DNA from: an uncultured Maritimibacter sp.
Lineage (GTDB): Bacteria > Pseudomonadota > Alphaproteobacteria > Rhodobacterales > Rhodobacteraceae
Length of the DNA: 63,700 nt
Assembly (NCBI GenBank): GCA_964352155.1
Contig: CAYGRI010000001.1
Span: 1 to 63,700, forward strand
Direction: 5' to 3'
The position numbers and the translations under genes are program-made. Below the pieces are notes generated by a model. It searched no databases and was not told the DNA's origin. It worked only from the letters and a program-made list of their open reading frames with translations. Shown here in pieces: positions 4,943-61,399 of this stretch; position 1 is the stretch's first letter, and each line of letters begins with the position of its first letter.

Positions 4943-5367
4943 CCGGCGCGGCTGCCAAGCGTCTTGTGATTGCGGCGGCGCCTCGTTCATGTTGCCGTTG
5001 GCCACCCGCCGTGATCTACTTTAGCCAGACCGAAATTGACCGGCAGGCGCAGCGAATTCCATGACGGGACCCGAACCTGCCGGCTGCCACAGGGGCCGCA
5101 TGACCCAGATCCGATCCGTCTCTCGACCTTGGACTGCCCCAGCCTGCCGTCGGTCGCTTGCCGAGGGTGCCGCGCGCTTGACGATCCGTGCTGAATAGCC
5201 CGCAGCGACAGGGGGCGCGCAGCCCGGATCCTGGCATGCGCCGGGGGGCGCCGGGGCGTCTTTGGCAACCGATGACACGTCTTGTGTGTCCCGACGCGGG
5301 CACCCGGCCTATTGGCGCGGGCGCCCGTCCCGTGTGTTGGTCCCGCGATGCCGGTTCCCGTGCTCGC

Positions 5368-5392
5368 GTAACAAATCCTTCTGCCGGACGAA
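5368..5392 (+). promoter_or_regulatory. ECF sigma (SigF/EcfF-type) autoregulatory promoter
   Basis: GTAACA(5368-5373)-N15-CGAA(5389-5392), 25 nt before the sigma ATG; resembles the GTAAC..CGAA consensus of SigF/NrsF systems. Confidence 0.7.
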
Positions 5393-5417
5393 CAGCCAAG
5401 CAGGGGTCGCGGACGTA

Positions 5418-6577: not shown

Positions 6578-6581
6578 GCGG

Positions 6582-7409
6582 CTAACGCAGTGCCTCGAAC
6601 CAGTCGAGCGCGAGGTCGGCCCAGCCCAGCGGGACCGAATGCGCGCCAGGATGCAGCGCGAAATCGAGCCGCGCGCCGCTCTCGCAGTCGGTCCAGCGTC
6701 TGATCTGGAAATCGTCCTTTGCGTCGAAGGCGTTGGGCTGCAACCGGCAGTCATTGGCCGCGCGCCAGATCTGCATTGCGACAAAGACGTCGCCCTGGGC
6801 GATGCCGCTGTCAAAGGCGCGCCCTTCCAGCGGCACTGTCCCGTCCCGCCAGCCATGGGTGTGGAACAGGTCGACCGGCCCGCGGCAAGCCGTCGGATGC
6901 GGGCGCCAGAAGCTGCCCGCCACCGGGGCATAGGCGCGAAAACTGTCGGGGGTGTCGCAGGCGATATAGCTGGCCATCGACCCGCCAATCGAGAATCCGG
7001 CCAACAGTATCCTGTCCCGGTCGAGCCCAAAGCGCGCGGCGGCGTTATCGGCCACCGAGCGGAGAAAGGCGCCCTCGTTCCGCCGGATCGGGCGATCGGG
7101 ATGGAAATCCCAGCGGCGCCCGTTCCGGTCCTGCATCGGCTGGCCGTCGGGGGCGATCACCGCATAGCCCCGGGCCAGCAAAGCGTCGACCATTCCGGTG
7201 TTGCGCATGGTGCCTTCGCCGCTGCTGCCAAAGCCATGCAGGAAGACGACCGCCGGTGCGCTTTCGGCATCGGTCTCTGGCAGGACGATATGATAGCTGC
7301 CGTCGGGCAGGGTGCAGGCGCCGGGATCGCGTCCGCAATCCGCCTGCGCCGCCCCGCCCAACAGGGCCGCGGCGAGGCCAAGGCCTGCACAAACAACGGC
7401 CCTGATCAT
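6582..7409 (-). CDS. Exported alpha/beta-hydrolase esterase (PHB depolymerase/LpqP-like)
   Basis: Signal peptide ending AQA; FLHGFG oxyanion motif, GFSIGG nucleophile elbow, HGWRDGTVP, HPGAH; start overlaps opgH stop. Confidence 0.8.
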   Translation of the reverse strand: MIRAVVCAGLGLAAALLGGAAQADCGRDPGACTLPDGSYHIVLPETDAESAPAVVFLHGFGSSGEGTMRNTGMVDALLARGYAVIAPDGQPMQDRNGRRWDFHPDRPIRRNEGAFLRSVADNAAARFGLDRDRILLAGFSIGGSMASYIACDTPDSFRAYAPVAGSFWRPHPTACRGPVDLFHTHGWRDGTVPLEGRAFDSGIAQGDVFVAMQIWRAANDCRLQPNAFDAKDDFQIRRWTDCESGARLDFALHPGAHSVPLGWADLALDWFEALR

Positions 7410-10692: not shown

Positions 10693-11882
10693 GACCGGAC
10701 CGCCTGGGCGGGGGCGCCGCTAGGGACGGTGGCGGATTGCGGTCGCTTGATCGCCTGTTTCCAGGGTTTTGCCTTGAAATAGGCCGCCCCCCGCGCCACC
10801 CCGATTATGATCGCAAAGCCCGCGAGGTTCACCGCCAGCGCCGCCAGCGGACCGCCCCCCGCGAGGTTGAGGAACGCGCCCAGAACCCGCGCCATCACCA
10901 TGGAGGCCGCAAAGACCGCAAGCGATTGCTGGCCCACCTGCGACACCGCGGCGATGACCTTGCCCGCCAGGCCCGTGCGGTGCAGCCGCACCCCGCGCGC
11001 GCCCACGGCCACCCAGGCCAGATAGGCCAGCGCCAGGAAGTGGATATAGCGCAGCACGCCGAAATCGGACTTGTCGAACAGAAAAGACCAGTCGCCGCGC
11101 CACTCCCGCACGAACTCTGACGCCCGGATGATCTTGTACCAGGCGAAGGGCACCGACAGCACCACGATCAGGATCGCGAGGATTACCAGCCAGCGGCGCA
11201 CCGGCGGCGCGGGCAGCCAGCCCGACATCAGGGCGAACCCCGTGAAGAACACCAATTGCCAGGCGAAGGGGTTGAAGAACCACATCCGCTTTGACCCGGT
11301 CGAGAACCACAGCTCCGCCGGCAGGTTCAGCCCGGAGGAGGCCGCGATCCACAGGGCCAGGCTGAACGCAAAGGCCAGCCGCACATCCAGACTGGCCAGG
11401 GCGATCATCACCGGAATCAGCGCCAGAATCACCAGATACATCGGCAGAATGTCAAAGTAATTGGGCACATAGGTCAGCGTCAGCAGACCGATCACATTGC
11501 CTTCGGGGTTGTTCAGGAACGGATACAGGTTCAGCGCGCCGACCTCGTTGCGCGGAAAGATCTGCGTGGCGTTCAGCACCAGCATCAGGAACAGCGTGAC
11601 AAAGAACACGCCCAGATGCACCCAGTAGACCTGCCAGACCCGAAAGGCGATCGACATCGTGCCCATCAGCCAGCCCGCGCGCGCGAACACCGCGCCAAAG
11701 GCCAGCGCCGACGCCATGCCCGAGCAGAAGACGAACATCTCTGTCGCATCCGAAAAGCCGAAGCGCGCCGGGATCCACAGGGTCCAGGGGTTGGCGGTGA
11801 CATGGGCGATCAGGATGATGAACATGCCCACGCCCCGAAAGAAGTCGAGCCTTGGGTCTCGGGGCCGTTTTGCCACTGTCAT
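10689..11882 (-). CDS. opgC: OpgC-domain membrane acyl(succinyl)transferase
   Basis: RDPRLDFFRG, FGFSDATEMFVFCSG, DILPMY, FNPFAWQ, GQQSL; multi-TM. Confidence 0.9.
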   Translation of the reverse strand: MTVAKRPRDPRLDFFRGVGMFIILIAHVTANPWTLWIPARFGFSDATEMFVFCSGMASALAFGAVFARAGWLMGTMSIAFRVWQVYWVHLGVFFVTLFLMLVLNATQIFPRNEVGALNLYPFLNNPEGNVIGLLTLTYVPNYFDILPMYLVILALIPVMIALASLDVRLAFAFSLALWIAASSGLNLPAELWFSTGSKRMWFFNPFAWQLVFFTGFALMSGWLPAPPVRRWLVILAILIVVLSVPFAWYKIIRASEFVREWRGDWSFLFDKSDFGVLRYIHFLALAYLAWVAVGARGVRLHRTGLAGKVIAAVSQVGQQSLAVFAASMVMARVLGAFLNLAGGGPLAALAVNLAGFAIIIGVARGAAYFKAKPWKQAIKRPQSATVPSGAPAQAVRS

Positions 11883-42978: not shown

Positions 42979-44022
42979 TTAGTTGATCACAAAGCCCATC
43001 GCGGCGCCGATGGTCTCGTTCCAGGTGGCCGCGCAGGCCTCGCCGCAGCGGTCTTTATAGGCCGGAAGCACCGCCATCGTCGCGGCATCGGCCATCAGGG
43101 CCATATCCGCCTCGGACGCGGGAACGAGCGTCATGTTCGCAGGCTCGCCGTAGGGGCAGGTGCCGCCGGTGTTGCAGGCCAGACCATCCGCCGTTTCGGT
43201 GGCGGCGAGGGCGAACATCTTGTCCTCCAGCTCGGCCAAGCCTTCCTCGATCGCGGTCTGGGCGGCGGGATCGATGCCGTTCCACCAGTCCAGATTGGCG
43301 ATGTTGGCAATCACACCGTGGTTGATCGGCACGGCAGAGATGTAATCGGCGGGCTCATGCCATTTTGCCAGATAGCCCGACAAGGCGCCGGTGATGGCGC
43401 AGTCGATGGTGCCGTTGGCCATGGCGGTGGGGACTTCGCCAAAGGCCATCCCGATGGGCGAGGCGCCGATATGTTCCAAGAACACCTGCTGAGATGCGCC
43501 AGAGGCCCGCACCTTGCGGCCCGCCAGATCGGCGAGTGAGGCGAAGGCCTCGCGGCAGTAGACAACCTGGCTTTGATAAATGCCGTAGCCCAGCAGCTTG
43601 ATGCCATGAGTCTCGGCCAGATAGCCGGCGTGAAACTCGCGGAACGCATCGGCCGCCTTGTGCACGCCTTCCACATCGGCGACGACGCCCACAAGGTCGC
43701 TGGCCTCGTTCACCGGCACGGAGCCGGAGGTGTAGGACAGCACCTGATGCGCCATCTGCACGGTCCCGTTGGACACCAGCGAGAACAGCTCATCCCCCTT
43801 GAAGCCCAGCTCGTTGAACGGCTTGATGTTCGCCTTGATGGCGCCGCCGCTGCTGTCAACGATGGTCTCGGTCCAGAACGGCAGCTCCATGTCCTTGTAC
43901 ATCGACAGGATCCCGATGGAGCCGACGACGTTCAGATTGGTCTCGGGGATGTCTTGGGCCTGCGCCTGCGCGGCGGTCAGACCCAGCGCGAGCAGGGCGG
44001 CGAAGGATAGGTTCGAAGTCAT
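42979..44022 (-). CDS. dctP: TRAP substrate-binding protein (DctP)
   Basis: Signal peptide AQAQA; ELPFW, DLAGRKVR, GTIDCAITG; C-terminal Cys pairs. Confidence 0.88.
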   Translation of the reverse strand: MTSNLSFAALLALGLTAAQAQAQDIPETNLNVVGSIGILSMYKDMELPFWTETIVDSSGGAIKANIKPFNELGFKGDELFSLVSNGTVQMAHQVLSYTSGSVPVNEASDLVGVVADVEGVHKAADAFREFHAGYLAETHGIKLLGYGIYQSQVVYCREAFASLADLAGRKVRASGASQQVFLEHIGASPIGMAFGEVPTAMANGTIDCAITGALSGYLAKWHEPADYISAVPINHGVIANIANLDWWNGIDPAAQTAIEEGLAELEDKMFALAATETADGLACNTGGTCPYGEPANMTLVPASEADMALMADAATMAVLPAYKDRCGEACAATWNETIGAAMGFVIN

Positions 44023-44063
44023 AGAGGGCACTCCTTGTTGGGGCTGGCAGGGTACGGCCCCGC

Positions 44064-45359
44064 CTAGCGTGGATTGACGATTTCAGGAAGCCAGAGCGCA
44101 AGCCCCGGCACGGCGATCAGCAGACCAATCATCACCAGCATGGCCAAGAGAAACGGAACAGAGCCAACGAACAGGTCAGAGATCGACCCGGTCTTGCGCA
44201 CGGCCTGAACGATATACAGGTTCAGGCCCACCGGCGGGGTGATCAGCGCGGCCTCGATCAGGATGACGAAGACGATGCCCCACCAGACCGGATCATAGCC
44301 CAGCCCGACGATCACCGGGACGATGATCGGCGTGGTCGCGATCATCATGGAAATCGTCTCCATGAAGCAGCCCAGCAGCAGGTAGAAGGCGATGATCGCC
44401 AGCAACATGCCCAGCGGGGGCCAGCCCAGATCCAGGATCGCGTTGGTGATCGCATCCACCAGCCCGATCGACACCATCACGAGGTTCAGAAAGAAGGCGG
44501 TCAGCACGATCAGCATGATCATGCAGGTGGTGCGCACGGTTCCTTCGAAAGCGCTCAGCAGCACCGGCAATGTCAGCTTGCCGTTCAGAGCGACCAGCCC
44601 CAGTGTTGCCAGCAGGCCCAGCGCCGCCGCCTCTGTCGGCGTGGCCAGCCCCACATAGATCGACCCGACCACCACCAGGAACAGCCCCAGCGGCGGCAAC
44701 AGATGCGGCAGCCCCGCGATCCGCGCGGGCCAAAGCGAGCCGCTGGCGGGTTTGCCCTTGACCAGCGACGGCATCACCAGCACCGCGAGCAGCACGATCC
44801 CCGAAAACAGCGCCGCCAGCATCAGGCCGGGGATGAACCCGGCGGCATAAAGGTCCGTGACAGAGGTTTGCGACAGCACCGAATAAACGATCATGTTGAT
44901 CGACGGCGGGATCAGGATGCCTAGCGTGCCCCCCGCCGCGATGGAGCCCAGGAACAGCGGCCGGTTGTAACCGCCCTTGTCCATATTGGGCACGGCGACG
45001 GTGCCGATGGTGGCCGCCGTCGCCAGCGACGAGCCCGAGGTCGCCGCAAAGACCGCGCTGGAGGCGATGTTGGTATGGATCAACTGCCCCGGTACGCGGG
45101 CGAACCAGGGGGCCAGCGCGCCGAACAGCCGCTCTGACACGCCGGAACGGTGCATCAACTCGCCCATCATGATGAACATTGGCGCGGCGATCAGGATGAA
45201 GTCGTTGGAATGGCTCCAGAAAATGGGCCCGGCGGCGCCGGTCATCGGAATGAAGGCGTAGTTTTCCGAAAGGAAATAGCCGGTCAGCGCCAGGACCGCC
45301 GCGACAGGCAGGCTCAGCGCCAGACCGACCAGCAGAAAGATCAGGGCGGCCTGGATCAT
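44064..45359 (-). CDS. dctM: TRAP transporter large permease (DctM)
   Basis: SGSSLATAATIG, GGTLGILIPPS, TPTEAA, ITPPVGLNL. Confidence 0.92.
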   Translation of the reverse strand: MIQAALIFLLVGLALSLPVAAVLALTGYFLSENYAFIPMTGAAGPIFWSHSNDFILIAAPMFIMMGELMHRSGVSERLFGALAPWFARVPGQLIHTNIASSAVFAATSGSSLATAATIGTVAVPNMDKGGYNRPLFLGSIAAGGTLGILIPPSINMIVYSVLSQTSVTDLYAAGFIPGLMLAALFSGIVLLAVLVMPSLVKGKPASGSLWPARIAGLPHLLPPLGLFLVVVGSIYVGLATPTEAAALGLLATLGLVALNGKLTLPVLLSAFEGTVRTTCMIMLIVLTAFFLNLVMVSIGLVDAITNAILDLGWPPLGMLLAIIAFYLLLGCFMETISMMIATTPIIVPVIVGLGYDPVWWGIVFVILIEAALITPPVGLNLYIVQAVRKTGSISDLFVGSVPFLLAMLVMIGLLIAVPGLALWLPEIVNPR

Positions 45360-45940
45360 GACTTGGGCTCCTTCAAGTCGATGCCGATCTCCGCGATCTC
45401 TTCCATCAGGTCGGGGTTGGAGATCAGTGCCTCCATCCCCTTGGTGTCGCCGGCCACGAGGCGCGCCACGGCCAAGATCGGGGTCAGGCAGGCGACCGTT
45501 GCGAACCAGGCAAAGCCGGTCCACCAGACCAACTGCGGCCCGATCAGCGGCACCCGCAGGGTCGATTGCGAGCGCGCGTCCAGCTTCCAGCTTTCCTGCA
45601 GCACGTCGAAGGAATACCACGCCAGCGCCGCCGCCGTGAGGGCCAGCGCCAGCGCGGCGATCAGGTCAAAGATCAGGCGGATCGGACGCGGCAGCTTGGC
45701 CGTCAGAATATCGACGCGGATGTTCGCGCGGCTGGTGACGGTGAACCCCATGCCCAGACCGATGCAGGCCGCGAAAGCGTAGCTGGAGATCTCAAAGCTC
45801 TCCAGCAGGGTCTGGCCCGTCACCGCCCGAGAGACGACGTCGATCGCGATGGGGATCGCGCAGCCGAACAGGATCAGCGCGCCGGCGGTCCAGGCGAGCC
45901 AGCGGCTGACCCGTGCTGTGATGTCATGCACTGGCTGCAC
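45356..45940 (-). CDS. dctQ: TRAP transporter small permease (DctQ)
   Basis: EISSY, NIRVDIL; four TM helices; overlaps dctM. Confidence 0.87.
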   Translation of the reverse strand: MQPVHDITARVSRWLAWTAGALILFGCAIPIAIDVVSRAVTGQTLLESFEISSYAFAACIGLGMGFTVTSRANIRVDILTAKLPRPIRLIFDLIAALALALTAAALAWYSFDVLQESWKLDARSQSTLRVPLIGPQLVWWTGFAWFATVACLTPILAVARLVAGDTKGMEALISNPDLMEEIAEIGIDLKEPKS

Positions 45941-46311
45941 GTCCTATGTCCCTTCCCTCTGTCGCCCGGTTGCCGCCCGGGGTGGTCGCATTGTCAAGCG
46001 GCCCCAGGCCCGGCCACTGTCCCGCGTTTCAAGAGCGTGCGCCGCCGGATCCTGCCAAGGGCCCAATGCGGCGTCGACTCCCTGCGGCAGAATGGGGGGA
46101 GGGCGCGGGAAGTGTCCAGCTTTGTCATTGCCTTCGGTCCGATCTCTGGGCGGATGCCTCGATTTTAATCCCTGCTCTTCGCTTCGTTCCGCCGGATGTC
46201 GTGCCGCTGCCGGATGATGCCCGAATCCCATTCGGTCGGCCGTATCGGCGCGCCTTGGTCGCCGGTCGCTTCGGTCTGGCGATCCCCGGGGTGATCGCAA
46301 AAGAATTTCTG

Positions 46312-46331
46312 TTGTGTACAAATTGTGTACA
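46312..46331. promoter_or_regulatory. GntR operator: tandem TTGTGTACA repeats
   Basis: TTGTGTACA at 46312-46320 and 46323-46331 (11-bp period), each containing the TGTACA palindrome, just upstream of gntR. Confidence 0.7.
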
Positions 46332-46347
46332 TTATAGGGTCGCCGCT

Positions 46348-47049
46348 ATGAAACGATTCTCCAAAGATGATTGCGTGGCCGATCTCAGGCGCCGCATCCT
46401 GTCGACCGACCTGTCGCCGGGCGAAGACCTGGACGAAACCGCGCTGGCCGAGCGCTATGGCATGTCGCGCACGCCGCTGCGCGAGGTGCTGCAACGGCTG
46501 CAGGGCGAAGGCTATGTCGAGATGAGCCAGAACCGCGGGGCGAAGGTTGCCTCGATGGACATCGGCGTGCTGCGGACGTTCTTTCAGACCGCCCCGATGG
46601 TCTATGCCAATGTCGCGCAGCTCGCGTGCGAAAACCGGACAACCGCGCAATTGGACCGGTTGAAAGACGCGCAGCGGGTCTTTGCCAAGGTGGCCACGAC
46701 CAATCCGTCAGAGGCGGCGCTGGCCAATCACAGCTTTCATGCGATCATCGGTGACATGGCGCAGAACCCCTATCTGGTCGCCTCGCTGGCGCGTCTGCAG
46801 ATTGACCACACCCGGATGAGCCAGACCTTCTATCGCCCCGCCGCCCCGGCAGAGACACTGCTGGTGATCAAGGCCATCGAACAGCACGATGCCATGATCA
46901 CCGCGATTGACTCGCGTGAACGGGCGTTGGCCATCGACCTAACCCTGCAGCACTGGGACCTCAGCCGTGACCGGATGGAACGCTTCGTGCGCCCCGATCC
47001 GCTGCCGGTCGATATCGTTTCACTCAAGGACCGCCGCAATGCAGTTTGA
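46348..47049 (+). CDS. GntR (FCD) family transcriptional regulator
   Basis: LAERYGMSRTPLREVL wHTH; NHSFH..NPYL..QHDAM..H FCD residues. Confidence 0.92.
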   Translation: MKRFSKDDCVADLRRRILSTDLSPGEDLDETALAERYGMSRTPLREVLQRLQGEGYVEMSQNRGAKVASMDIGVLRTFFQTAPMVYANVAQLACENRTTAQLDRLKDAQRVFAKVATTNPSEAALANHSFHAIIGDMAQNPYLVASLARLQIDHTRMSQTFYRPAAPAETLLVIKAIEQHDAMITAIDSRERALAIDLTLQHWDLSRDRMERFVRPDPLPVDIVSLKDRRNAV

Positions 47050-47947
47050 AGGCATCTACACACCCGTGGTGACACCCTACCACGCCGATTTCACCCTGAA
47101 CGAAGAGGCGCTGGCCCGTACCATTGAACACCTGATCGCTGCCGGGGTGCATGGGATCGTCGTGGCGGGGTCGACCGGCGAATACTACGCCCAGACGCCC
47201 GAGGAACGGCTGGAGATGATGGGCCGCGCCGCGGGCCTGATCGCCGGGCGGGTGCCGATGATCGTGGGCACCGGCGCCATCCGCACCGAGGACAGCGTGA
47301 TGTATGCCAAAGCCGCGAAGGCCGCCGGGGCGGATGCGCTGCTGGTGGCCACGCCGCCCTATGCTTATCCGACGGGGCGCGAGATCGCGCTGCATGCGCT
47401 GGCCATTGATCAGGCCGCGAACCTGCCGGTGATGCTGTATAATTACCCCGGCCGCATGTCCGTCAATATGGACGAAGAGACGCTGGACCGTCTGGGCCGC
47501 AGCCCGAATTTCTGCGCCGTCAAGGAAAGCTCAGGCGATATCAACCGCCTGCACATGCTCGCCCGCGACTATCCGCATATCGCCTTGTCCTGCGGGATGG
47601 ACGATCAGGCGCTGGAATTCTTCGCCTGGGGCGCGCGGTCCTGGGTCTGCGCCGGGTCGAACTTTGCGCCCGAAGCGCATATCGCGCTGTATCGGGCTTG
47701 TGCGGTCGAGGGGGATTTCACCAAGGGCCGCGCGATCATGTCGGCGATGCTGCCGCTGATGCGGGTGCTCGAACAGGGCGGCAAGTTCGTGCAATGCATC
47801 AAATACGGGCTGACCCTGCGCGGCATCGACGCGGGCCCGCCGCGCAAGCCGCTGCAGCCGCTGAACAAGGACGACAAACGCGAACTGGCAAAGGTGATCC
47901 GCACCATGAACCTCGCCGTTTCCAGCATCACGGGGGCCTCGCTATGA
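47039..47947 (+). CDS. Dihydrodipicolinate synthase (DapA/NAL) family lyase
   Basis: GSTGEY, ATPPY, LYNYPGR, VKESSGD Schiff-base Lys. Confidence 0.9.
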   Translation: MQFEGIYTPVVTPYHADFTLNEEALARTIEHLIAAGVHGIVVAGSTGEYYAQTPEERLEMMGRAAGLIAGRVPMIVGTGAIRTEDSVMYAKAAKAAGADALLVATPPYAYPTGREIALHALAIDQAANLPVMLYNYPGRMSVNMDEETLDRLGRSPNFCAVKESSGDINRLHMLARDYPHIALSCGMDDQALEFFAWGARSWVCAGSNFAPEAHIALYRACAVEGDFTKGRAIMSAMLPLMRVLEQGGKFVQCIKYGLTLRGIDAGPPRKPLQPLNKDDKRELAKVIRTMNLAVSSITGASL

Positions 47948-49416
47948 CCGATCTTCTGACCCATGCGGAATACCGCGCCCTGGCCGAAGCGCTGGACCCG
48001 CCCCGCAGCCCGTTCATCGACGGCAAGTACCGGCGCGGACAGGGGCCGATGATGGCTACATTCAACCCGGCGACGGGGGCCGAGATTGCGCAGATCTCGA
48101 CCGCTGATGCGACGGATGTGGACCTGGCCGTTGCCAAGGCGCGTGAGGCGTTCGATCAGGGCCGCTGGTCGAAACTGGATCCAGAGGCGCGCAAGGACGT
48201 GCTGATCCGGCTGTGCAAGCTGATGACGCGGAACCGCCGCGAACTGGCGGTGATGGAAAGTGTCGACTCCGGCAAGCCGATCCGCGATTGCGAGTTGATC
48301 GACCTGCCAGAGACGATCCATTGCCTCAAATGGCATGCCGAGGCGATTGACAAGATCTATGATCAGACCGCCCCCACCGGCGACGGCGCACTTGCGATGA
48401 TCCTGCGCGAACCGGTGGGCGTGGTGGCCGCTGTTCTGCCCTGGAACTTCCCGTTGATGATGCTGGCGTGGAAAATCGGCCCGGCCCTGGCGGCGGGCTG
48501 TTCGGTGATCGTGAAACCGGCCGAGCAGACCAGCCTGACCGCGCTGCGGGTGGCCGAGCTGGCCGCCGAGGCGGGCGTGCCGCGCGGGGTGCTCCAGGTG
48601 CTGCCCGGCGACGGCCCGTCGGTGGGGGAGCCCTTGGGCCGGCACATGGATGTGGACATGGTCAGCTTTACCGGATCGACCGAAACCGGGCGGCGCTTTT
48701 TGCATTATGCGGCGGACAGCAACCTCAAGAAGGTGGTCCTGGAATGCGGCGGCAAGAACCCGGCGCTGGTGTTCGACGATGCCGAGAACCTCGATCATGT
48801 GGCGGGCCATGTCGTCAACGCCGCCTTCTGGAACGCCGGGCAGAATTGTTCGGCCACCTCGCGTCTGATCGTGCACAGCGCCGTCAAGCCCGCGCTGATG
48901 GAAAAGATCGCCGCCCGGATGCGCGATTGGAAAACCGGCGATCCGCTGGATCCGGCCAACCATATCGGTGCGCTGATCGACGCGGACCATTGCGCCAAGG
49001 TGCGCGGCTATCTCGATACCGCAGGGACGGGGCCGTTCGTCGCGCCGCAGGTGGTGGAGGTCGCGGCGGATGATGCCCGCGCGGTGGATGAGATCTTTGG
49101 CCCCGTCCTGAGTGTGATCACGGTCGCGTCCAATGACGAGGCGGTGAGCATTGCCAATGACACGTCCTATGGGCTGGCGGCCTCGGTCTTTTCCGCCGGG
49201 GGGCGAAGTGCCCTGCGTGCGGCGCGTGACATACGGGCGGGCACCGTCACCGTCAATTGCTATGGCGAGGGCAACATCGCCACGCCCTTCGGCGGCTACA
49301 AGCAATCGGGCTTTGGCGGGCGCGACAATGGCCTACACGCCCACGACCAATACACCGAGATAAAGACCATCTGGATCGATCTCACCGATCCCGCAGACGG
49401 AGACAATGTGGCATGA
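47944..49416 (+). CDS. Aldehyde dehydrogenase (PuuC-like)
   Basis: PWNFPL, KPAEQT, FTGST, LECGGKNP, GQNCSA, EIFGP, PFGGYKQSG. Confidence 0.93.
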   Translation: MTDLLTHAEYRALAEALDPPRSPFIDGKYRRGQGPMMATFNPATGAEIAQISTADATDVDLAVAKAREAFDQGRWSKLDPEARKDVLIRLCKLMTRNRRELAVMESVDSGKPIRDCELIDLPETIHCLKWHAEAIDKIYDQTAPTGDGALAMILREPVGVVAAVLPWNFPLMMLAWKIGPALAAGCSVIVKPAEQTSLTALRVAELAAEAGVPRGVLQVLPGDGPSVGEPLGRHMDVDMVSFTGSTETGRRFLHYAADSNLKKVVLECGGKNPALVFDDAENLDHVAGHVVNAAFWNAGQNCSATSRLIVHSAVKPALMEKIAARMRDWKTGDPLDPANHIGALIDADHCAKVRGYLDTAGTGPFVAPQVVEVAADDARAVDEIFGPVLSVITVASNDEAVSIANDTSYGLAASVFSAGGRSALRAARDIRAGTVTVNCYGEGNIATPFGGYKQSGFGGRDNGLHAHDQYTEIKTIWIDLTDPADGDNVA

Positions 49417-50963
49417 GCGTGGATGCAGTCGGGACGGTCCGCCGGGGACGCGGTGCGCGCAAGGCGATCCGCCAGACCCGCGACATCAAGATGCTGCCCG
49501 CGCTCAAACGGCGCCTGCCCCTGACCGAGCCGATGACGCCCGAGCAGATCGAGCGGATCGACGCGGCCTCGATGAACGTCCTGGAAAACGTGGGCGTGAT
49601 GTTCCGCGATCCCATCGCGCTGGAGGATTGGACGCGTGCCGGTGCCAAGGTGGTCGGAGAGATGGTGTATCCCGACCGCGATCTGGTGCGCGCCCTGATC
49701 GCGTCGATCCCTGAAAGCTTCACCTACCACGCACGCGACCCGCAGAAATCGCTGCCCTTCGGCCAGGATCACAGCATCTTCGTGCCGATGACCGGGGCGC
49801 CCTATCTGCGTGACCTTGACGATGTGCGCCGCAACCCGACGCTCGCGGATCTGGCGAATTTCCACAAGCTCAGCCACATGCTGCCCGCGATCCATTCCAG
49901 CGCGCATCACATCGTGGAACCCTACGACCACCCGATCAGCCAGCGCCATCTGCACATCACCTATTCCTCGATGAAGCATTCCGACAAGACCTTCATGGGC
50001 ATGACCACAAGCCCCAAGAACGCCGAAGACGTGATGGAGATGTGCGCGATCCTGTTCGGCGAAGACTTCATCGACAGCCATCCAGTGGTGACGGGCAATT
50101 GCAACGGCAACTCTCCGCTGGTGTGGGACGAGACGATGCTGGGCGCGATGCGGGCCTTCTGCCGCCGCAACCAGCCGGTGCTGTGCTCTCCCTTCGTGCT
50201 GGGCGGGGCGAATACGCCTGCCAGCGTCCCGGCAACTGTGGCGCAGCTGAATGCCGAAGCGCTCAGCGCGCTGGCCTATACCCAGATCGTGCGCAAGGGC
50301 TGTCCGGCGATCTATGGGCATTACCTCAGCACCGTCAGCATGAAATCCGGCGCGCCGATGGCGGGCACGCCGGAAATCAGCCTGATGAACTTCATGATCG
50401 GCCAGATGGCGCGGTTCTATGGCGTGCCGTGGCGGACCTCGAACACTTTGGGCGGGGCCAAGACCTTCGACGCGCAGGCCGGGTACGAATCCGCCATGAC
50501 GATGAACGCCGTGCTGATGGCGGGGGCCAATTACATCTGGCATTCGGCAGGCTGGAACGAGGCGGGGATGCATTGTTCAACCGCCAAGTTCATCGTCGAT
50601 GCCGAGATGTGCGCGATGGGCTACCGCATGGCCGAAGGCATCCGCTGGGACGATTTCGCCGAGGCGATGGAGGCGGTGCCCGATGTAGGCCCCGGGGGGC
50701 ATTACCTGGGCCATCCCCACACGCTGGAGCACTTCCAGAAAGCGTTCTTCATGCCCGAGATGTTCGACAACAATTCGATCGAGCAATGGCAGGCCGAAGG
50801 CAGCGTTGAGATCACGGAACGCGCCCTGCGCAAGGCCCGCGCGATGCTGGAGGAATATGAAGAACCCCGACTGGATCCGGGCGTCGATGAGGCCTTGCGC
50901 GACTATATCGCCCGGCGCGAACGCGAGATTCCGGCGGCCGACTCGTTGAACCAGGATCATTGA
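49413..50963 (+). CDS. Trimethylamine methyltransferase (MttB) superfamily protein, non-pyrrolysine
   Basis: NSPLVWD, SMKSGAP..GTPE, GQMARFYGVPWR, AKTFDAQAGYES, VGPGGHYLG; no in-frame amber. Confidence 0.9.
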   Translation: MSVDAVGTVRRGRGARKAIRQTRDIKMLPALKRRLPLTEPMTPEQIERIDAASMNVLENVGVMFRDPIALEDWTRAGAKVVGEMVYPDRDLVRALIASIPESFTYHARDPQKSLPFGQDHSIFVPMTGAPYLRDLDDVRRNPTLADLANFHKLSHMLPAIHSSAHHIVEPYDHPISQRHLHITYSSMKHSDKTFMGMTTSPKNAEDVMEMCAILFGEDFIDSHPVVTGNCNGNSPLVWDETMLGAMRAFCRRNQPVLCSPFVLGGANTPASVPATVAQLNAEALSALAYTQIVRKGCPAIYGHYLSTVSMKSGAPMAGTPEISLMNFMIGQMARFYGVPWRTSNTLGGAKTFDAQAGYESAMTMNAVLMAGANYIWHSAGWNEAGMHCSTAKFIVDAEMCAMGYRMAEGIRWDDFAEAMEAVPDVGPGGHYLGHPHTLEHFQKAFFMPEMFDNNSIEQWQAEGSVEITERALRKARAMLEEYEEPRLDPGVDEALRDYIARREREIPAADSLNQDH

Positions 50964-50964
50964 C

Positions 50965-52296
50965 ATGCAGATCCGCCGCCTGCCGCGCGACCCCGGTCCC
51001 GCTGGCTGGAACCGCCTGCTGCCTGAACCTGACGCGCCCACCCCGCTGGAGGGGCGGGTCACCGCCGATTGGCTGGTGATCGGCGCGGGCTATGCCGGGC
51101 TGGCCGCCGCGCATCGCCTGTCGAAACTGGCCCCCGGCGACCGGATCGTCGTTCTGGACGCGGTGCGGATAGGCGACGGCCCGGCGGGGCGCAACTCTGG
51201 CTTCATGATCGATTTGCCGCATGACCTGACCTCTGACGATTACGGTGGCGCGCTGAACAGCGATCTGGCGCAGACACAGGACAACCGCCGCGGCATCGCC
51301 CATGCCCGCGACATGGCCGCGGAATTCGGCCTGCCGCCCGAGGCCTTTGTGATGTCGGGCAAGATCAACGGCGCCGCCACCGCTAAGGGCAGCGCCCATA
51401 ATCAAAGCTTTGCCCGCCATCTGACGGCGATGCAGGAACCGCATGAGATCTTCGATGCGGCCCAGATGCGCGAGATCACGGGTACGCCCTATTACCAAAG
51501 CGGGCTGTTTACGCCGGGCAGCGCGATGATCCAGCCCGCGAAGTTCGTGCGCGGGGTGGCGGCGGGCCTGCGGTCGAACCGGGTTTCGATTCATGAGAAC
51601 AGTCCTGTCACAAGGCTCGACCGGCAGGGCGACTGGGTGGCGAAGACTCCCTTGGGGCAGGTGACGGCGCCGAACGTGATCCTTGCGGTGAACGGCCATC
51701 TGAACAGCTTTGGCTATCTGCCCGGGCAGCTGATGCATGTTTTTACCTATGCCTCGATGACCCGCGCGCTTGCCCCGGACGAGGTCGCGCGGCTTGGCGG
51801 ACGTGCGATCTGGGGGCTGACACCCGCCGATCCGATGGGCACGACCGTGCGACGGATTTCCGGCACCGGCGGTGACCGGATCATCATCCGCAACCGCTTT
51901 ACCTTCGATCCCACGCTGGAGGTCACCGACCGTCGCATCGCCACCGTCGCGCGCGATCACGACAGGGCCTTTGCTGCGCGGTTCCCGATGCTGGACGGGG
52001 CCGCCATGGAATACCGTTGGGGCGGCCGTTTGTGCCTCAGCCGCAATGGCGTGCAGGTAATCGGCCAGCTGGACGAGGGCCTGTTTTCCGCCTGCTGCCA
52101 GAACGGGCTGGGCACGGCCAAAGGCACCTTGGCCGGAGGGTTGGCGGCCGAACTGGCGCTGGGGCAGACGTCAGACGCGCTGTCCCGGGCGCTGTCGGCG
52201 GAGGCTCCTGTTCGCCTGCCGCCCGAGCCTATCGCGCGGCTGGGGGCGCGCCTGATCCTCAAATGGCAGGAACGGCGCGCGGGCCGCGAGTTCTAG
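50965..52296 (+). CDS. FAD-dependent amine/amino-acid oxidoreductase (DAO/PuuB-like)
   Basis: VIGAGYAG, GRNSGF, YRWGG, QNGLGTAKGT. Confidence 0.88.
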   Translation: MQIRRLPRDPGPAGWNRLLPEPDAPTPLEGRVTADWLVIGAGYAGLAAAHRLSKLAPGDRIVVLDAVRIGDGPAGRNSGFMIDLPHDLTSDDYGGALNSDLAQTQDNRRGIAHARDMAAEFGLPPEAFVMSGKINGAATAKGSAHNQSFARHLTAMQEPHEIFDAAQMREITGTPYYQSGLFTPGSAMIQPAKFVRGVAAGLRSNRVSIHENSPVTRLDRQGDWVAKTPLGQVTAPNVILAVNGHLNSFGYLPGQLMHVFTYASMTRALAPDEVARLGGRAIWGLTPADPMGTTVRRISGTGGDRIIIRNRFTFDPTLEVTDRRIATVARDHDRAFAARFPMLDGAAMEYRWGGRLCLSRNGVQVIGQLDEGLFSACCQNGLGTAKGTLAGGLAAELALGQTSDALSRALSAEAPVRLPPEPIARLGARLILKWQERRAGREF

Positions 52297-52497
52297 GCCG
52301 CAAAGGCGCAAGGGCGATGCGCACCGGCCCGTGCCAGAACGCATCGGTCCGGGGAAAATCGCCGCTCCGTCTGGTGTGCCGAGAAACCGCTTGAAACCGA
52401 ACGAACGATGTCCAACACTCATTCCAATGAAAGCAGAGTTTTTGCTTGAAATATCGTAAGTGTTCACTGTCGCAAGTATGGTAAAGGGTGAGACCTG

Positions 52498-52674
52498 ATG
52501 GAGCCTTCGTCAAACGCAAGCGACACCGATCCGCACGACGAGGCAGACACCTCGGATCAGGCAGCGGAGACGGCGAGCCCCGATGCCGCACGCCGCCTGT
52601 CGCGGATCGAGCGGATCCGGCAAAAGGTCAAAAAGCTTCAGGGAAAGGACCCTGACATCTATCCGATGTGGTAG
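52498..52674 (+). CDS. 58-aa peptide (absent from ORF track): acidic N-terminus, basic helix, DPDIYPMW tail
   Basis: MEPSSNASDTDPHDEADTSDQAAETASPDAARRLSRIERIRQKVKKLQGKDPDIYPMW*; follows an AT-rich promoter-like stretch; first ORF of the cassette. Confidence 0.65.
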   Translation: MEPSSNASDTDPHDEADTSDQAAETASPDAARRLSRIERIRQKVKKLQGKDPDIYPMW

Positions 52675-55898: not shown

Positions 55899-57233
55899 AT
55901 GAACCAGCCCGTTCCGCCCAAAACGACCGCATCCTCTGCCAAGGCGGATACCGCTTTCGACTGGGAAGCCTGCTGGTATCCCGTCTCGTTCCTCGAAGAC
56001 CTGCCGCGCGACCGTCCGACGCGCGTGTCGCTGTATGATACGGGGCTTGTGCTGTTCTTTGATGGGGCGGGACAGTTGCATTGCCTGCGCGATCTGTGCC
56101 CGCACCGTGCCGCACGGCTGTCGGATGGCCAGATCGTCGATGGGCGGCTGGAATGCCTGTACCACGGCTGGCAATTCGATGGGGCGGGCGATTGCCAGTT
56201 CATCCCGCAGATGCTGCCTGACAAGGACTACCCGATCCGCTCTTGCGTGCGGGCCTATCCCGTCCACCTGCGCGACGGCATTGTCTGGGTCTGGGCGGGC
56301 GATTCCGGCGCGGCGGATCCGGGGTGGATCCCGCACAGCAAGGCCGCCGGGGTCCAGGATCTTTGCGCGGTGACATTCCAGATGGATCTGCCCTATGACC
56401 AAAGCTACCTGATCGAGAATGTGATCGACATTGCCCATATTCACATCGCCCACGACGGGGTGCGCGGCGGCGGCATCCGGGCGGCGGCCAAACCGCTGCA
56501 ATTCGAGATCGAGCATAGTGGGATCGACGGGATCCGCGCCACCTTTCGGACGATCGGACTGAAACGCGCCGAGGGCAGCCCGCAGGTTGCCGGGGCGCAG
56601 GTGGAATACGTGGCGCCGAACCTGGTCCGCTATGCCTCTACCTATGCCGATGGTGGGCTGGTCGCGGGGCTCGAGCTGTTCGCGCTGCCGGTGGGCAAGG
56701 GGCGCAGCCGCCTCTTGTACCGCAAGTACAGCAATTTCACGGGATGGCGCGAGCGGATCAAACCCCGCTGGATGGAGCATCAGGTTCAATGCCTGATCCT
56801 TGAACAGGATATGAACGTCGTGGTCGGTCAGCATCAGGAGATCGAGGGGGCGCAACAGCCGCTCAGTACGCTATGGCTGCCGATCAAGACCTCGGACCGG
56901 CTGGTTGTGGAATACCGCAAATGGCTGGATCGTTTCGGCGCGGCGCTGCCGTTCTACCGGGGGTTCGCAACGGCCCGAAACAGCCAGATCGATCCCGGCG
57001 CCCCGCAGGCCCGCCACGACCGCAGCAGCCTGCACACGGCGATCTGCGGTACCTGCCAGCGGGTGGCGCGGCGTCTGGATCTGGGAGCGAGGGCAGCGGC
57101 GGGGCTGGCGGCGGTGGCGGCCGGGCTGGCCATCGCGTCGGGGGATCCCGGCGCTCGCCTTTGGCTTTTCGGGGTGGCGCTGCTGGCGGGGCTGGGTCAT
57201 CTGGCGCTGCGCCGGGCCCGCCGACGGTTCTAG
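55899..57233 (+). CDS. Rieske mononuclear-iron oxygenase, PAO/Tic55 family
   Basis: CPHR..CLYHGW Rieske motif; ENVIDIAHIHIAH iron site; SDRLVVEYRKWL; HTAICGTC CxxC; two C-terminal TM helices. Confidence 0.88.
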   Translation: MNQPVPPKTTASSAKADTAFDWEACWYPVSFLEDLPRDRPTRVSLYDTGLVLFFDGAGQLHCLRDLCPHRAARLSDGQIVDGRLECLYHGWQFDGAGDCQFIPQMLPDKDYPIRSCVRAYPVHLRDGIVWVWAGDSGAADPGWIPHSKAAGVQDLCAVTFQMDLPYDQSYLIENVIDIAHIHIAHDGVRGGGIRAAAKPLQFEIEHSGIDGIRATFRTIGLKRAEGSPQVAGAQVEYVAPNLVRYASTYADGGLVAGLELFALPVGKGRSRLLYRKYSNFTGWRERIKPRWMEHQVQCLILEQDMNVVVGQHQEIEGAQQPLSTLWLPIKTSDRLVVEYRKWLDRFGAALPFYRGFATARNSQIDPGAPQARHDRSSLHTAICGTCQRVARRLDLGARAAAGLAAVAAGLAIASGDPGARLWLFGVALLAGLGHLALRRARRRF

Positions 57234-57333: not shown

Positions 57334-58176
57334 TTGACAGGATCGCCCACCGCGTCGGTACGGGATTTCTACCGCGAGATGCCGTTCAACTATTACTCGG
57401 ACGCCGCGCTGGCAGAACGCAATTTGCGGGCCAATCCCATCGCCGCCTATCCCGACCTCGACGCCCTGCTGGAAGAGGACGAGATCGGCTCTGTGCTGGA
57501 GCTTGGCTGCGGCGCGGGCTGGGCCGCGAATGCCATGGCCTTGCATTATGGCAAGACTGTTGTGGCGGTCGATTTCACCGCCAAGGCCCTGTCGCGCGCT
57601 CGCGAGGTGGCACAGCGCGTCGGCACTCAGCATCGGGTGGGTTTTGTAGAGCAGGATCTGTTCGATTACAGGTCGCAGCGCCGCTTTGATCTGGTGGCCA
57701 GCATCGGGGTCCTGCACCACACCCGCGATTGCCGCGCGGGGTTCGATCACGCCGCCAGCTTTGTCCGTCCCGGCGGGTATCTGTTCGTCGGCTTGTATCA
57801 CCTGCAAGGCCGCCGTCCGTTTCTGGAATACATGCGCGGGCTTGTGGCGACCGAGGGTGAAGACGCCGCCTTTGCCCGGTTCCGCGAGATCTCTGGCGAG
57901 CGGACGGACGAGACGCATCTGCGGTCCTGGTTCCGCGATCAGGTGCTGCATCCGCATGAAACCCAGCATAGTCTGGCAGAAGTCTGGACCTGGCTCGACG
58001 ACGCGGGTCTGACCCTGCGGTCCACCAATCTTAACGACTACGAGGCGCCGGGCGACCGCGCCGGGTTGATCGCGCAGGAAGCCGCTTTCGAGCTGCTGTC
58101 GATCCGTCGCAACCGCGACGAAGGGCGGTATTTCCCGGGCTTCTTCACTGTGCTGGCGCAGTCAGCGGCGGGGTGA
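57334..58176 (+). CDS. Class I SAM-dependent methyltransferase
   Basis: GAGGAG RBS with TTG; VLELGCGAG motif I, SIGVLHHT, PGGYL, WFRDQVLHPHE. Confidence 0.88.
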   Translation: MTGSPTASVRDFYREMPFNYYSDAALAERNLRANPIAAYPDLDALLEEDEIGSVLELGCGAGWAANAMALHYGKTVVAVDFTAKALSRAREVAQRVGTQHRVGFVEQDLFDYRSQRRFDLVASIGVLHHTRDCRAGFDHAASFVRPGGYLFVGLYHLQGRRPFLEYMRGLVATEGEDAAFARFREISGERTDETHLRSWFRDQVLHPHETQHSLAEVWTWLDDAGLTLRSTNLNDYEAPGDRAGLIAQEAAFELLSIRRNRDEGRYFPGFFTVLAQSAAG

Positions 58177-58322: not shown

Positions 58323-59825
58323 TTACACGCCGCCGTCACGGGCGCGGGTCCAGCGGTGCAGCCAGATCGGATAGGGCGTGCTGCCATCGGGTCGCCGCAG
58401 GGCAAGGCGCAGTTCCGCATGGTCGGTGGCGCCCGGGGTCAGCAGAAAGGTCACCCGCGTGCCCCGGTTGCCGGGCAGGGCGAACAGGCTGATGCCAGAG
58501 ATCTCGGCGTCGCCGCTCACGCTGAGATCGGGGGTGAAGCTCGCCGGATCGCCCGCGTAATCCACCACATAGCGCCGGGTGCCGGGGCGGTCATGCTCTC
58601 GCCCGCTGCGGCTTTGCACAATTCTCTGCGCCTCGGCCACCGGTGGCGCGGCCGTCCAGATCAGGCAATAGGCAAAGCGATGCACGCTGCCTGCGGCCAG
58701 GGGCGCGGCGGGGCGCCAGAAGGCAACGATATTGTCCATGAATTCGTCGCCGGTGGGGATTTCCACCAGAGTCACCGCGCCGGGCCCCCAATCTTCCCCC
58801 GGTGTCACGATCACCGAGGGACGGTCGTGATAGCGGGCCTCGGAATCCTGATAATCCTCGAACCGGCGCGGGGTCTGGAACAGGCCGAAGCTGACCGGCG
58901 CGTTGTCTGCAAAGGCAGAGGTCTCGATCCGGGCGGGGTTGGCGATCGGGCGCCACAACAGCTCTCCGGCTCCGTTTTCCATCACCAGCGCATTGCAATC
59001 ATGCACGCGGGGGCGGAAATCGTCGGACACGGCCGCCAGAAGCGGGCCTTTGAGATACATCGAGGTCAGAGGCGCGATGCCGATATCCGCGATCTCGACC
59101 CGGGGAAAGAGCGTGACGGCGATGTCCATCGTGGTTTCGGCGCCGGGATGCAGCGTCAGGTCCAGATGCCCGGTCAGCGAGGGGCTGTCGATCACGCCTT
59201 CAAGGCGGATGCTGTCCCCGTCGGCGGGATAGACGCGCAGCACGATGAAACGCGGGAATTCCTCGGGCCTCGGGCCGCCGGTGCCAAGCGCCACGCTGCG
59301 GGCCGACATGCCATAGACCATCGCCTGCCCGATGGCGCGGAAATAGCTTGCGCCCTGCACGACCATCACCTCGTCCAGCCGGTCCGCCGCGTTCAGGGGA
59401 TGGCGCAGGCGCAGGCCAGAGAATCCGGCACCCGGGGCGGTGTCGGGAATGGTGTCGAAATACCGGGAGCCAAAGCGGAACAGCGAGGGAGAAAACGGCA
59501 CTTCGCGCAGGCCCTCGGCACCGGCGAGCTCTACGCGCACGGGATCGGGGAAGTAGAGGCCCGGGGGCAGCAGGTCGACTGCCCAACCGTCGCCCAGGGG
59601 CAACATCGCGGCGCGTCCCTCTATCGGGCGGATCGCGCGAAAGGCATCGTAGGTCAGCCCGGCAAAGGGCGGCGGCAGGGGGATGGTATTGGGCTTGTAG
59701 GCCTTGTGGGCAAGGGCGCGCGCGGCGGCCAGCAGCGTCTCTGGCGCCGCGCTTTGCGCTGCCAGCCGGGTGCCAGGGGCCAACAGCGCGGCGGCGGTCG
59801 TTGCAAGAAAGCTCCGGCGTCTCAT
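58323..59825 (-). CDS. opgG: OpgG/OpgD family glucan biosynthesis protein, Tat signal, copy 2
   Basis: MRRRSFL twin-arginine leader; QGASYFRA, YGMSAR, EEFP, WRPIANP, EFMDNIVAFW. Confidence 0.9.
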   Translation of the reverse strand: MRRRSFLATTAAALLAPGTRLAAQSAAPETLLAAARALAHKAYKPNTIPLPPPFAGLTYDAFRAIRPIEGRAAMLPLGDGWAVDLLPPGLYFPDPVRVELAGAEGLREVPFSPSLFRFGSRYFDTIPDTAPGAGFSGLRLRHPLNAADRLDEVMVVQGASYFRAIGQAMVYGMSARSVALGTGGPRPEEFPRFIVLRVYPADGDSIRLEGVIDSPSLTGHLDLTLHPGAETTMDIAVTLFPRVEIADIGIAPLTSMYLKGPLLAAVSDDFRPRVHDCNALVMENGAGELLWRPIANPARIETSAFADNAPVSFGLFQTPRRFEDYQDSEARYHDRPSVIVTPGEDWGPGAVTLVEIPTGDEFMDNIVAFWRPAAPLAAGSVHRFAYCLIWTAAPPVAEAQRIVQSRSGREHDRPGTRRYVVDYAGDPASFTPDLSVSGDAEISGISLFALPGNRGTRVTFLLTPGATDHAELRLALRRPDGSTPYPIWLHRWTRARDGGV

Positions 59826-61399
59826 GTCGCGGGCGCGTCCAGGTAGCGGACCAACAGCGGCGCGCCGAGCAGCGGCAGGACAAGCGGTGCCAGCCAGACC
59901 GCCGAAGCCGTTCCCGCGATCAGGGCGAGGCCGGTGATTGCCCCGCCCGCCAGCGCCTCTGCCCCGCCGATGGGCAGGATCGCGCGGCGGGTGCGACCGG
60001 ATTTCCACCCGCAGTCGCGCCCGGCCAGCACAGAGGCGACAGAGCCCGCCTGCCGGACCATCACAAGGGGCGCCAGCAGGGCAGAGACCGCCACCTCTGA
60101 CCAGAACGCGCGCAAAAGGATGCCGCGCCGTCCCGCCGTGCGGGCGCGCCGAAACAGGGCGGTCAGAACGCAGATCTTGGGCAGCAAAAGCAGGCCGAGG
60201 ATGATGGCAAAGGGCAGGGCGCCCGCGACCGTGACCGCGCCAGAGGCGACCATGGCGACCAGCGCCAGCCAGACCGGCGCCGCCAGATAGCTGATGACCC
60301 CTTCGGCCAGGTGGAACCGGCTGATCGGGTGCAGCCCGGGTTCCGCCAGCAGCCGCAGATGCTGCAGATTGCCCTGACACCAGCGGCGGTCGCGGCGGTG
60401 GAAGCCGTCGAGCGTTTGCGGGGCTTGCTCGGCGCTGCCCGCGAGGGCTGGTTCAACCTCCACTGCCCAGCCGGCCCGGCGGATCCAGGCGGCTTCGACG
60501 AAATCATGGCTCAGGATCGGCCCGCCAAAGGGCGGCTTGCCTGACAGGGCCGGCACCTGGGCGTCGCGGAAGGCCGCGATCCGGATCAGGGCGTTGTGGC
60601 CCCAGTAATTGCCCGTCTTGCCGGTCCAGGCCGCGAAACCGCGCACAAAGCCGGGGGCCAGCAGTCGGGCCGCTATGCGCTGGTGCCGCCCGAACCGGCT
60701 GCGGCCCGGCACCAGGGCGATCCCGGCCTGCAGCAATCCGGTGCGCGGGCGGGATTCCAGTTGCCGGATCATCTGCCGGATGCGCGGGGCGCTCATCCGG
60801 CTGTCGGCGTCCAGGACGAGCATGAAGTCGAACCCGTCGCCATGCCCGCGCAGCCAGTCGTCGATATTGCCGGGTTTGCGCCCGATATTGTCCTCACGCC
60901 GCCGGTAGCGGATGGCATCTCGGGCGATTAGCGGGGCCAGCGCCGCCTCTTCCGCCGCGATGGCATCGGAGCCGGAGGTGTCGGACAGGACGAAGATCCG
61001 GGTCGCCGTGCCAAGCCCCGCGCGGTCCAGCGTGTGCCGCAAACCGTCCAGGTGGCGGGCGACCGGGCGGGGGGCTTCGCGGCACAGGGTCAACAGAATC
61101 GCGGTTGAACTGGCGGGCTGCCAGTCGGGCGGGATCGGCGGGGCTTTCGGCTGCGGGTGCAGCAGCCCGATCAGGGCCGTCGCCGCCCCGCCCCCGATCC
61201 AGGCCGCGCTGAGCAGAACCAGCGGCAGCGCGGCGAAGGCCATTGGCGTCCATCGCACGACAGAGCAGGAGAATGCCGCAAGCACCAAAAGCGCGAAGAC
61301 GACCCGCAGCAGCGCGAAGGCCCGGCGCGGATCATAGCGCCAGATGCGCCGGACGGCACCCGTCGTCGTCGCCCGCAAAAGCGTTTCGGCTGAGGACAT
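59822..61399 (-). CDS. opgH: Glucans biosynthesis glucosyltransferase OpgH/MdoH, copy 2
   Basis: RKPGNI, VLDADS, YWGHNA, LSHDFVEAA, RDRRWCQGN. Confidence 0.9.
   Translation of the reverse strand: MSSAETLLRATTTGAVRRIWRYDPRRAFALLRVVFALLVLAAFSCSVVRWTPMAFAALPLVLLSAAWIGGGAATALIGLLHPQPKAPPIPPDWQPASSTAILLTLCREAPRPVARHLDGLRHTLDRAGLGTATRIFVLSDTSGSDAIAAEEAALAPLIARDAIRYRRREDNIGRKPGNIDDWLRGHGDGFDFMLVLDADSRMSAPRIRQMIRQLESRPRTGLLQAGIALVPGRSRFGRHQRIAARLLAPGFVRGFAAWTGKTGNYWGHNALIRIAAFRDAQVPALSGKPPFGGPILSHDFVEAAWIRRAGWAVEVEPALAGSAEQAPQTLDGFHRRDRRWCQGNLQHLRLLAEPGLHPISRFHLAEGVISYLAAPVWLALVAMVASGAVTVAGALPFAIILGLLLLPKICVLTALFRRARTAGRRGILLRAFWSEVAVSALLAPLVMVRQAGSVASVLAGRDCGWKSGRTRRAILPIGGAEALAGGAITGLALIAGTASAVWLAPLVLPLLGAPLLVRYLDAPAT

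Follow-up and report, generated by a model that had tools for sequence, protein, structure and literature searches.

Gene content and setting of the cassette

The window analyzed here is the whole stretch of 63,700 nucleotides. On its forward strand, a gene for a 58-residue peptide is followed, in order, by genes for a short SxtJ-like protein, an O-carbamoyltransferase (CT), an SGNH-fold protein, a Rieske/PaO-type oxygenase, and a methyltransferase (Table 1). The preliminary description had the peptide heading a carbamoyltransferase cassette; it does head the cassette, but the half-length SxtJ-like gene intervenes before the CT. This short gene matches no Pfam or NCBIfam model at cut-off and is the best match in the window to a profile of nine SxtJ C-terminal halves built with the window row left out (E = 5e-6). 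The CT matches the structures of NovN, GdmN, and TobZ with E values of 1e-75 to 1e-95.

Table 1. Features of the peptide cassette and their positions in the window
Feature	Position	Strand	Basis or remark
Purine-rich, Shine-Dalgarno-like stretch AAAGGGTGAG	52483..52492	+	5 nt upstream of the peptide ATG; from sequence
D-P-[ND]-I-Y-P-x-[WFY]-family microprotein, 58 aa + TAG	52498..52674	+	Translation, family profile, codon divergence
Tail DPDIYPMW	52648..52671	+	Tyr55 (52660-52662) is fourth from the C-terminus
Half-length SxtJ-like membrane protein, 57 aa	52709..52882	+	C-terminal half only; TP...R...W...M pattern; GGAGG precedes
O-carbamoyltransferase (CT), NodU/CmcH/TobZ type, 611 aa	52955..54790	+	PF02543 and PF16861
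SGNH/GDSL-fold protein, unnamed family, 348 aa	54803..55849	+	Fold and triad; no Pfam family
Rieske/PaO-type oxygenase	55899..57233	+	Pfam
Class I SAM methyltransferase	57334..58176	+	Pfam

Among the loci covered, orthologues of the window methyltransferase and Rieske enzyme occur only in loci that carry a member of the peptide family (L142, L151, L217, L218, and L219), with the exception of one weak methyltransferase match in L067. Longer relatives of the methyltransferase (P0115-P0234; best 120 of 177) are fused to a CT in 61 cases and to an SGNH domain in 58. The methyltransferase thus connects the CT and SGNH enzymes, and a coupled carbamoylation-methylation step is possible in this family. 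The gene order of the window is repeated in L131, between NRPS and ketosynthase genes, and the order peptide/short SxtJ/CT is partly repeated in L099, L112, L161, and L174. The cassette is patchy and was probably acquired, since CT matches were found in none of seven genomes of the same genus and in three of 36 of the same family. The source genome also holds a second, distant CT (G000:C39:3165-4841, locus L091; 39% identity), with no SxtK or peptide within 1.5 kb.

The genes flanking the cassette are of different kinds. Upstream (42979-52296) lies an amine-catabolism-like unit with a TRAP transporter, a GntR regulator, a DapA-like lyase, an aldehyde dehydrogenase, a trimethylamine methyltransferase-like protein, and an FAD oxidoreductase; the last was checked with Pfam, and the other names were read from the sequence. 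Downstream, on the reverse strand (58323-61399), MdoG/OpgG and MdoH-like GT2 genes are oriented toward the cassette. An acceptor role for periplasmic glucans is conceivable but lacks support, as the MdoG/MdoH pairing is absent from the other loci scanned.

The peptide ORF is a gene

The 58-residue ORF had been described as a missed gene product in three parts, and its translation bears this out: an acidic, unconserved N-terminus (residues 1-31) rich in D, E, S, T, and A; a basic amphipathic helix at about residues 29-50, with the basic segment RLSRIERIRQKVKKLQGK; and the conserved tail DPDIYPMW, directly followed by the stop codon. Several observations bear on its coding status. First, its third-position GC content is 0.74, compared with 0.77-0.86 in the six adjoining genes. 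Second, 18-20 of the last 25 residues are the same in relatives, and the corresponding codons differ from those of three close relatives at 10, 11, and 16 third positions and at three, zero, and two second positions; this excess of third-position differences fits coding selection. Third, a profile of 39 relatives, built with the window row left out, finds the ORF in the window with E = 4e-13, the runner-up having 0.7. The ORF is covered without differences by contigs from two DNA runs of one study, which may be the source sample. The source genome has a single copy, and a search for a sigma-70 promoter consensus upstream found none. On these signs, we take the ORF to be a real gene.

An uncatalogued family of soluble microproteins

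Metagenomes were scanned with a DNA pattern for a D-P-[DN]-I-Y-P-x-[WF]-like tail followed by T[AG], which admits stop or sense codons. Among the matches listed, 61 of 80 end at a stop (p about 2e-12 against a rough 3/8), and the stop-terminated ones are mostly ORFs of 40-80 residues with a basic helix ahead of the tail. A profile of 40 tails run against 1.84 billion proteins recovered at least 111 clusters at 50% identity, with a median length of 55 residues. The preliminary description had proposed conservation of the C-terminal motif as a check on the peptide; the motif is kept across these clusters. In 109 of the 111 library matches, Tyr is at position -4 and Pro at -3, a count biased by the high score of Tyr in the search profile, and both exceptions consist of the motif plus an extension. 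Trp is the final residue of 54 matches, Phe of 34, Tyr of 13, and Asn of five. When the Tyr codon was left free in a pattern applied to viral sequences, all seven stop-terminated matches had Tyr, although they represent only two peptide types. The invariant columns of alignment A1 were imposed by the search pattern and are not taken as evidence. The family is built from a variable N-terminus, a basic helix, and a C-terminal D-P-[ND]-I-Y-P-x-[WFY]. Two duplicated tails, DPNIYPLWYIYPPW and DPNIYPFIYPLW (L177:456-614 and P0039), restore Tyr-Pro at the new C-terminus.

The family is uncatalogued. The members tested have no match at cut-off among Pfam, NCBIfam, and PHROG models, and the string DPNIYP was not found in the open-licence PMC and bioRxiv literature. 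The peptide lacks a transmembrane helix, as had been noted earlier in distinguishing it from SxtK: its maximum 19-residue hydropathy is -0.56, and that of 106 short family members does not exceed 1.12, whereas all 69 SxtK sequences reach at least 2.19. We infer a cytoplasmic location from the missing hydrophobic segments.

The steadiest partner is an SGNH-fold protein

The steadiest partner of the peptide family is the SGNH-fold protein and not the CT. Of the 61 loci with a stop-terminated tail, 45 hold an SGNH-like gene and 12 a CT; counted by distinct tails, the figures are 36 and 10 of 48. The earlier suggestion that the peptide docks on the carbamoyltransferase, which did not name the SGNH-fold protein, is, on these counts, probably wrong. 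In the loci where the tail pattern is not followed by a stop, the corresponding counts are 1/19 and 0/19, and the one SGNH-bearing case has a duplicated tail ending in Y-P-P-W. For distinct peptides with at least 5 kb of locus, the SGNH gene is found in 13/16 and the CT in 7/16, compared with 0/10 and 0/10 for non-stop counterparts. Of 34 distinct cases, 27 have the SGNH gene downstream of the peptide in the same orientation, mostly within 200 bp, and two are in-frame fusions. The library search added two SGNH-tail fusions (P0080 and P0101) and one peptide-SGNH fusion (P0102), judged by their motifs; a single-sequence fold of P0080 gave no usable model (pLDDT 40). No cassette gene accompanies six distinct tails, of which three belong to chance ORFs of at most 19 residues and three to contigs shorter than 2.5 kb. 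Neither an SGNH gene nor a CT was found in the DNA covered for L140, L148, L150, and L164, which share one peptide. The peptide itself is present in one copy per locus in 70 of 70 loci, and there are two to three SGNH paralogues in L119, L121, L122, L134, and L175, often next to glycosyltransferase, sulfotransferase, or deacetylase genes.

The association was also approached from the SGNH side. Running the SGNH profile on genomes not chosen for the peptide avoids circularity. Across 953 genomes from three other phyla, it gave four full-length matches, and all four adjoin a small ORF ending in Y-P-x-x (SVYPLH once, PNIYPLF three times). A fifth, CT-linked locus from Mesorhizobium has a transmembrane-anchored variant with the tail DNYPLW. 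Across these tails, D, N, I, and W vary, and Tyr and Pro are constant. In 400 further genomes from the phylum of the window, the SGNH profile had no match, the peptide profile found nothing within the loci of 23 partial SGNH matches from another clade, and tblastn of the SGNH protein against plasmid and phage GenBank sets returned no match.

Individual loci vary this arrangement. L221 (G463) encodes at 11010-11174 a transmembrane-anchored DNYPLW variant directly after a CT and a GDSL-type SGNH gene, with a half-length SxtJ present; basic residues follow its transmembrane helix, the reverse of SxtK, so its tail may face the cytoplasm. In L171, a 1060-residue GDSL-like/carbamoyltransferase fusion (4524-7703) is divergent from the peptide gene, and haem-oxygenase-like and polysaccharide-deacetylase genes follow the fusion. 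Large-phage contigs (L181 and L183-L188) have the peptide beside diverged SGNH-like genes, recognized by eye from GCS and DxxHP motifs and by profile matches in L188; in L186 and L187, it is surrounded by folE, queD, queE, helicase, and phoH genes. No CT was found in the five viral records with the peptide, which are 5-61% complete.

Structure of the SGNH protein and its predicted complex with the peptide

The model of the window SGNH protein has a pLDDT of 81 and 38 Foldseek matches at E <= 0.001, and the matches listed are without exception SGNH/GDSL-type esterases. The window protein retains the triad Ser109-Asp288-His291; Ser109 is kept in 28/28 rows, and Asp288 and His291 are kept in all 23 rows that reach them. 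Asn153 of the family is retained in 26/28 rows and is Ala in the window protein, which counts against the carrier role proposed below. The widest structure search (48,161 chains) placed CgnD, the SGNH hydrolase of crocagin biosynthesis, at the top, with Z 14.8, an rmsd of 4.0 over 205 aligned residues, and 15% identity; the next match has Z 13.4, and PatB has 10.4. A sequence profile of the peptide-linked SGNH proteins did not match CgnD at E values up to 10, whereas one of CT-linked SGNH proteins, mostly without the peptide, matched residues 26-342 at E = 4.7e-7. The fold match may therefore mark only a wider CT-associated clade.

Physical binding between the SGNH protein and the peptide is weakly predicted. 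The complex scored 0.47, a weak pass, and its best control scored 0.00; the agreement of contacts between runs was at least 69%, and partner pLDDT was at least 63. Of 157 solved complexes, 116 reach the mark for this score, as do two of 215 mismatches, and passing scores of 0.60 or less comprise only 18 solved complexes together with both of the passing mismatches.

The peptide takes the place of SxtK

SxtK (DUF5989, PF19451) and SxtJ (PF19588) are frequent companions of CTs. In the comparison set, the best 80 of 610 confirmed CT loci, the SxtK pattern is present in 63 and the SxtJ profile in 73. The PFIYxxF-like SxtK tail named in the preliminary description was recovered: SxtK ends in A-P-F-I-Y-x-x-F, with Tyr at -4 in 69 of 69 sequences. 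SxtK was found in none of 61 peptide loci and together with the peptide in no locus, and the source genome (87.6% complete) has no DUF5989 match. SxtJ, in the peptide loci that carry a CT, is mostly of the half-length form.

The idea of an SxtK analogue stands in part. The peptide resembles SxtK in its position beside SxtJ and a close CT, in a P-x-I-Y-x-x-aromatic end with Tyr at -4, and in a basic segment. The SGNH neighbor also recalls the SxtK-SxtJ-SxtI-SxtL system, in which SxtL is a GDSL-type protein (in the accessible sections of PMC2684587). The two families differ in that the peptide is soluble, goes with a half-length SxtJ and with its own SGNH family, more often lacks a CT, and shows no detected homology to SxtK: PF19451 matched neither the window peptide nor five family tails (SxtK controls, E 1e-26), and hhalign gave the peptide family and SxtK/DUF5989 a probability of 0.8%. 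By these comparisons, the peptide occupies the SxtK slot beside SxtJ and the CT and yet is not a member of the SxtK family. In a FastTree tree of 105 rows, some of them partial CTs, the peptide-linked CTs are scattered over five positions among those linked to SxtK, counted by placement rather than by a formal clade test, and the window CT is sister to the SxtK-associated CT of a Bosea MAG (support 0.995). We found no description of what SxtK does in the open-licence PMC and bioRxiv literature, the accessible sections of PMC2684587 included.

A candidate acyl-tyrosine carrier

The best explanation, which we regard as standing evenly between right and wrong, is that the peptide serves as a soluble and reusable carrier of an acyl or carbamoyl group on tyrosine. 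By analogy with DltX and PatA, Tyr55 would be the acyl-carrying residue. In the accessible parts of PMC12148441, the Tyr of a C-terminal FXYXXF in both proteins accepts an acyl group from an MBOAT and passes it on to the serine of an SGNH protein, and the fused tail of PatA provides a precedent for fusion. The route proposed for the window would have three steps. First, the CT would load a carbamoyl group onto Tyr55. Second, the peptide tail would bind the SGNH protein, and the group would move from Tyr55 to Ser109. Third, the SGNH protein would transfer it to the final acceptor. In the window, this acceptor is probably a lipid or small molecule, which the two downstream enzymes would also oxidize and methylate; in other loci, it may be glycans or an NRPS/PKS product.

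The Tyr at -4, the SGNH partner, the tail fusions, and the single peptide alongside up to three SGNH paralogues are consistent with a relay of this kind in which a CT is the donor. The likeness to DltX-DltB-DltD and PatA-PatB, as far as the available text of PMC12148441 describes them, extends to a short tail in which Tyr is invariant at the fourth position from the end and the last residue is aromatic, to an SGNH partner with a catalytic Ser, and to the existence of both a free microprotein and an enzyme-fused tail. The differences from the systems covered there are also clear. The motif is D-P-[ND]-I-Y-P here and F-X-Y-X-X-F there, with Asp or Asn in place of the first Phe; the peptide family has no transmembrane helix, is likely cytoplasmic, and has a carbamoyltransferase as its presumed donor; and its tail fusions are on the SGNH side, theirs on the donor side. 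No MBOAT was among the Pfam matches of the cassette genes or of the neighbors scanned.

CTs of the NodU/CmcH/TobZ class are known to carbamoylate their acceptors directly, which leaves no obvious need for a cytoplasmic carrier, and the absence of a CT from most peptide loci also speaks against the carrier. The genomes identified from the SGNH side bear on the donor as well. A close CT is present elsewhere in 4/4 (a small sample; background 39/121 and 27/101), but the same four genomes, 4/4, hold SxtK, and their CT may therefore work without the peptide. Together with the lack of a CT in the five incomplete viral records, this indicates that the carbamoyl donor is not general.

Alternatives to the carrier

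A serious rival, although on balance an unlikely one, reads the peptide as the precursor of a crocagin-like RiPP, in line with the leader-plus-core option of the preliminary description: the basic helix would be the leader, the SGNH protein would cut after Asp or Asn, and a core of the I-Y-P-M-W type would be oxidized, methylated, and carbamoylated. It is to be taken seriously because CgnD is the top fold match, because crocagin precursors end in N-x-Y-W, and because an oxygenase and a methyltransferase accompany the cassette. According to the accessible text of PMC10070186 (including its Supplementary Table 4) and PMC10885120, crocagin precursors have a basic leader and this C-terminal N-x-Y-W, CgnD slowly cuts after Asn to free the core, and the product is finished by a dioxygenase, by CgnL methylation, and by CgnI carbamoylation. 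All four of these enzyme types (an SGNH protein, a CT, a methyltransferase, and an oxygenase) are clustered in the window cassette too, and a basic helix is followed by N-I-Y and a terminal Trp in the peptide family. The near-restriction of the window methyltransferase and Rieske orthologues to peptide loci also suits a precursor, as do the oxygenase-type enzymes of other peptide loci (JmjC in L220, haem-oxygenase-like in L171 and L219).

The loci as a whole argue against a precursor. The SGNH protein is the only near-constant partner; many loci show no modifying enzyme beside the peptide, and many have SGNH or glycan-modifying neighbors only. In crocagin, as far as these sources describe it, the oxygenase is of the Fe/2OG type where the window has a Rieske enzyme, and the precursors are 20-37 residues with adjacent Tyr-Trp, compared with 36-70 residues and Tyr-Pro-x-aromatic in the peptide family. 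Crocagin chemistry needs this Tyr-Trp pair along with CgnB, CgnC, and CgnE, but Pro follows Tyr in 109/111 family members, Trp is last in fewer than half, and all six window cassette genes were assigned to families other than CgnB/C/E. A precursor tail fused to an SGNH C-terminus could be used only once, a single peptide copy with several SGNH paralogues is a better fit to a shared cofactor, and the repeat of the window gene order in L131 sits in an NRPS/ketosynthase setting. CgnD itself may have a second role. Among the rows of Supplementary Table 5 of PMC10070186 seen here, only the crocagin cluster, the sole CT-bearing one, has a closest homologue of CgnD; this restriction and the slow turnover hint that CgnD may be a CT partner besides a protease.

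The peptide could instead be a non-covalent subunit whose tail binds the SGNH protein or links it to the CT and the short SxtJ, activating, stabilizing, localizing, or inhibiting its partner, with Tyr used for binding only. We consider this improbable, even though the linkage, the fusions, and the weak complex prediction indicate partnership and not chemistry, and peptide-SGNH pairs exist without a nearby CT, also in the viral records. Against it, Tyr is at precisely the -4 position of SxtK and of a proven acyl-shuttle motif, and SGNH partners take the acyl group from such tyrosines in the two systems characterized in the accessible parts of PMC12148441. A chance or non-functional ORF, for which one could cite the lack of a match in a word-indexed protein search and the absence of the exact sequence from a 15-billion collection, is scarcely credible and largely refuted by the 111 related clusters, the tail identity among relatives, the synonymous-biased divergence, and the conserved neighbors.

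Implications

The carrier reading can be carried further, to a scheme that we find doubtful but worth stating. Tyr-tailed microproteins may form a general carrier layer between CTs or other acyl donors and SGNH transferases. The peptide family would be its soluble form, free of MBOAT and membrane and repeatedly swapped for SxtK, and the crocagin precursor with CgnD would be a derived case in which the carrier tail has turned into the product.

If the peptide is a carrier, the acyl-tyrosine shuttle, for which membrane MBOAT pathways are the only known setting, would reach a soluble system with a different donor, and there would be a direct handle on the role of the long-unexplained SxtJ and SxtK genes. 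If it is a precursor, the cassette would represent an undescribed RiPP class related to the crocagins. Under either reading, a first functional link would be gained for this uncatalogued family of microproteins and for the SGNH family that accompanies it.
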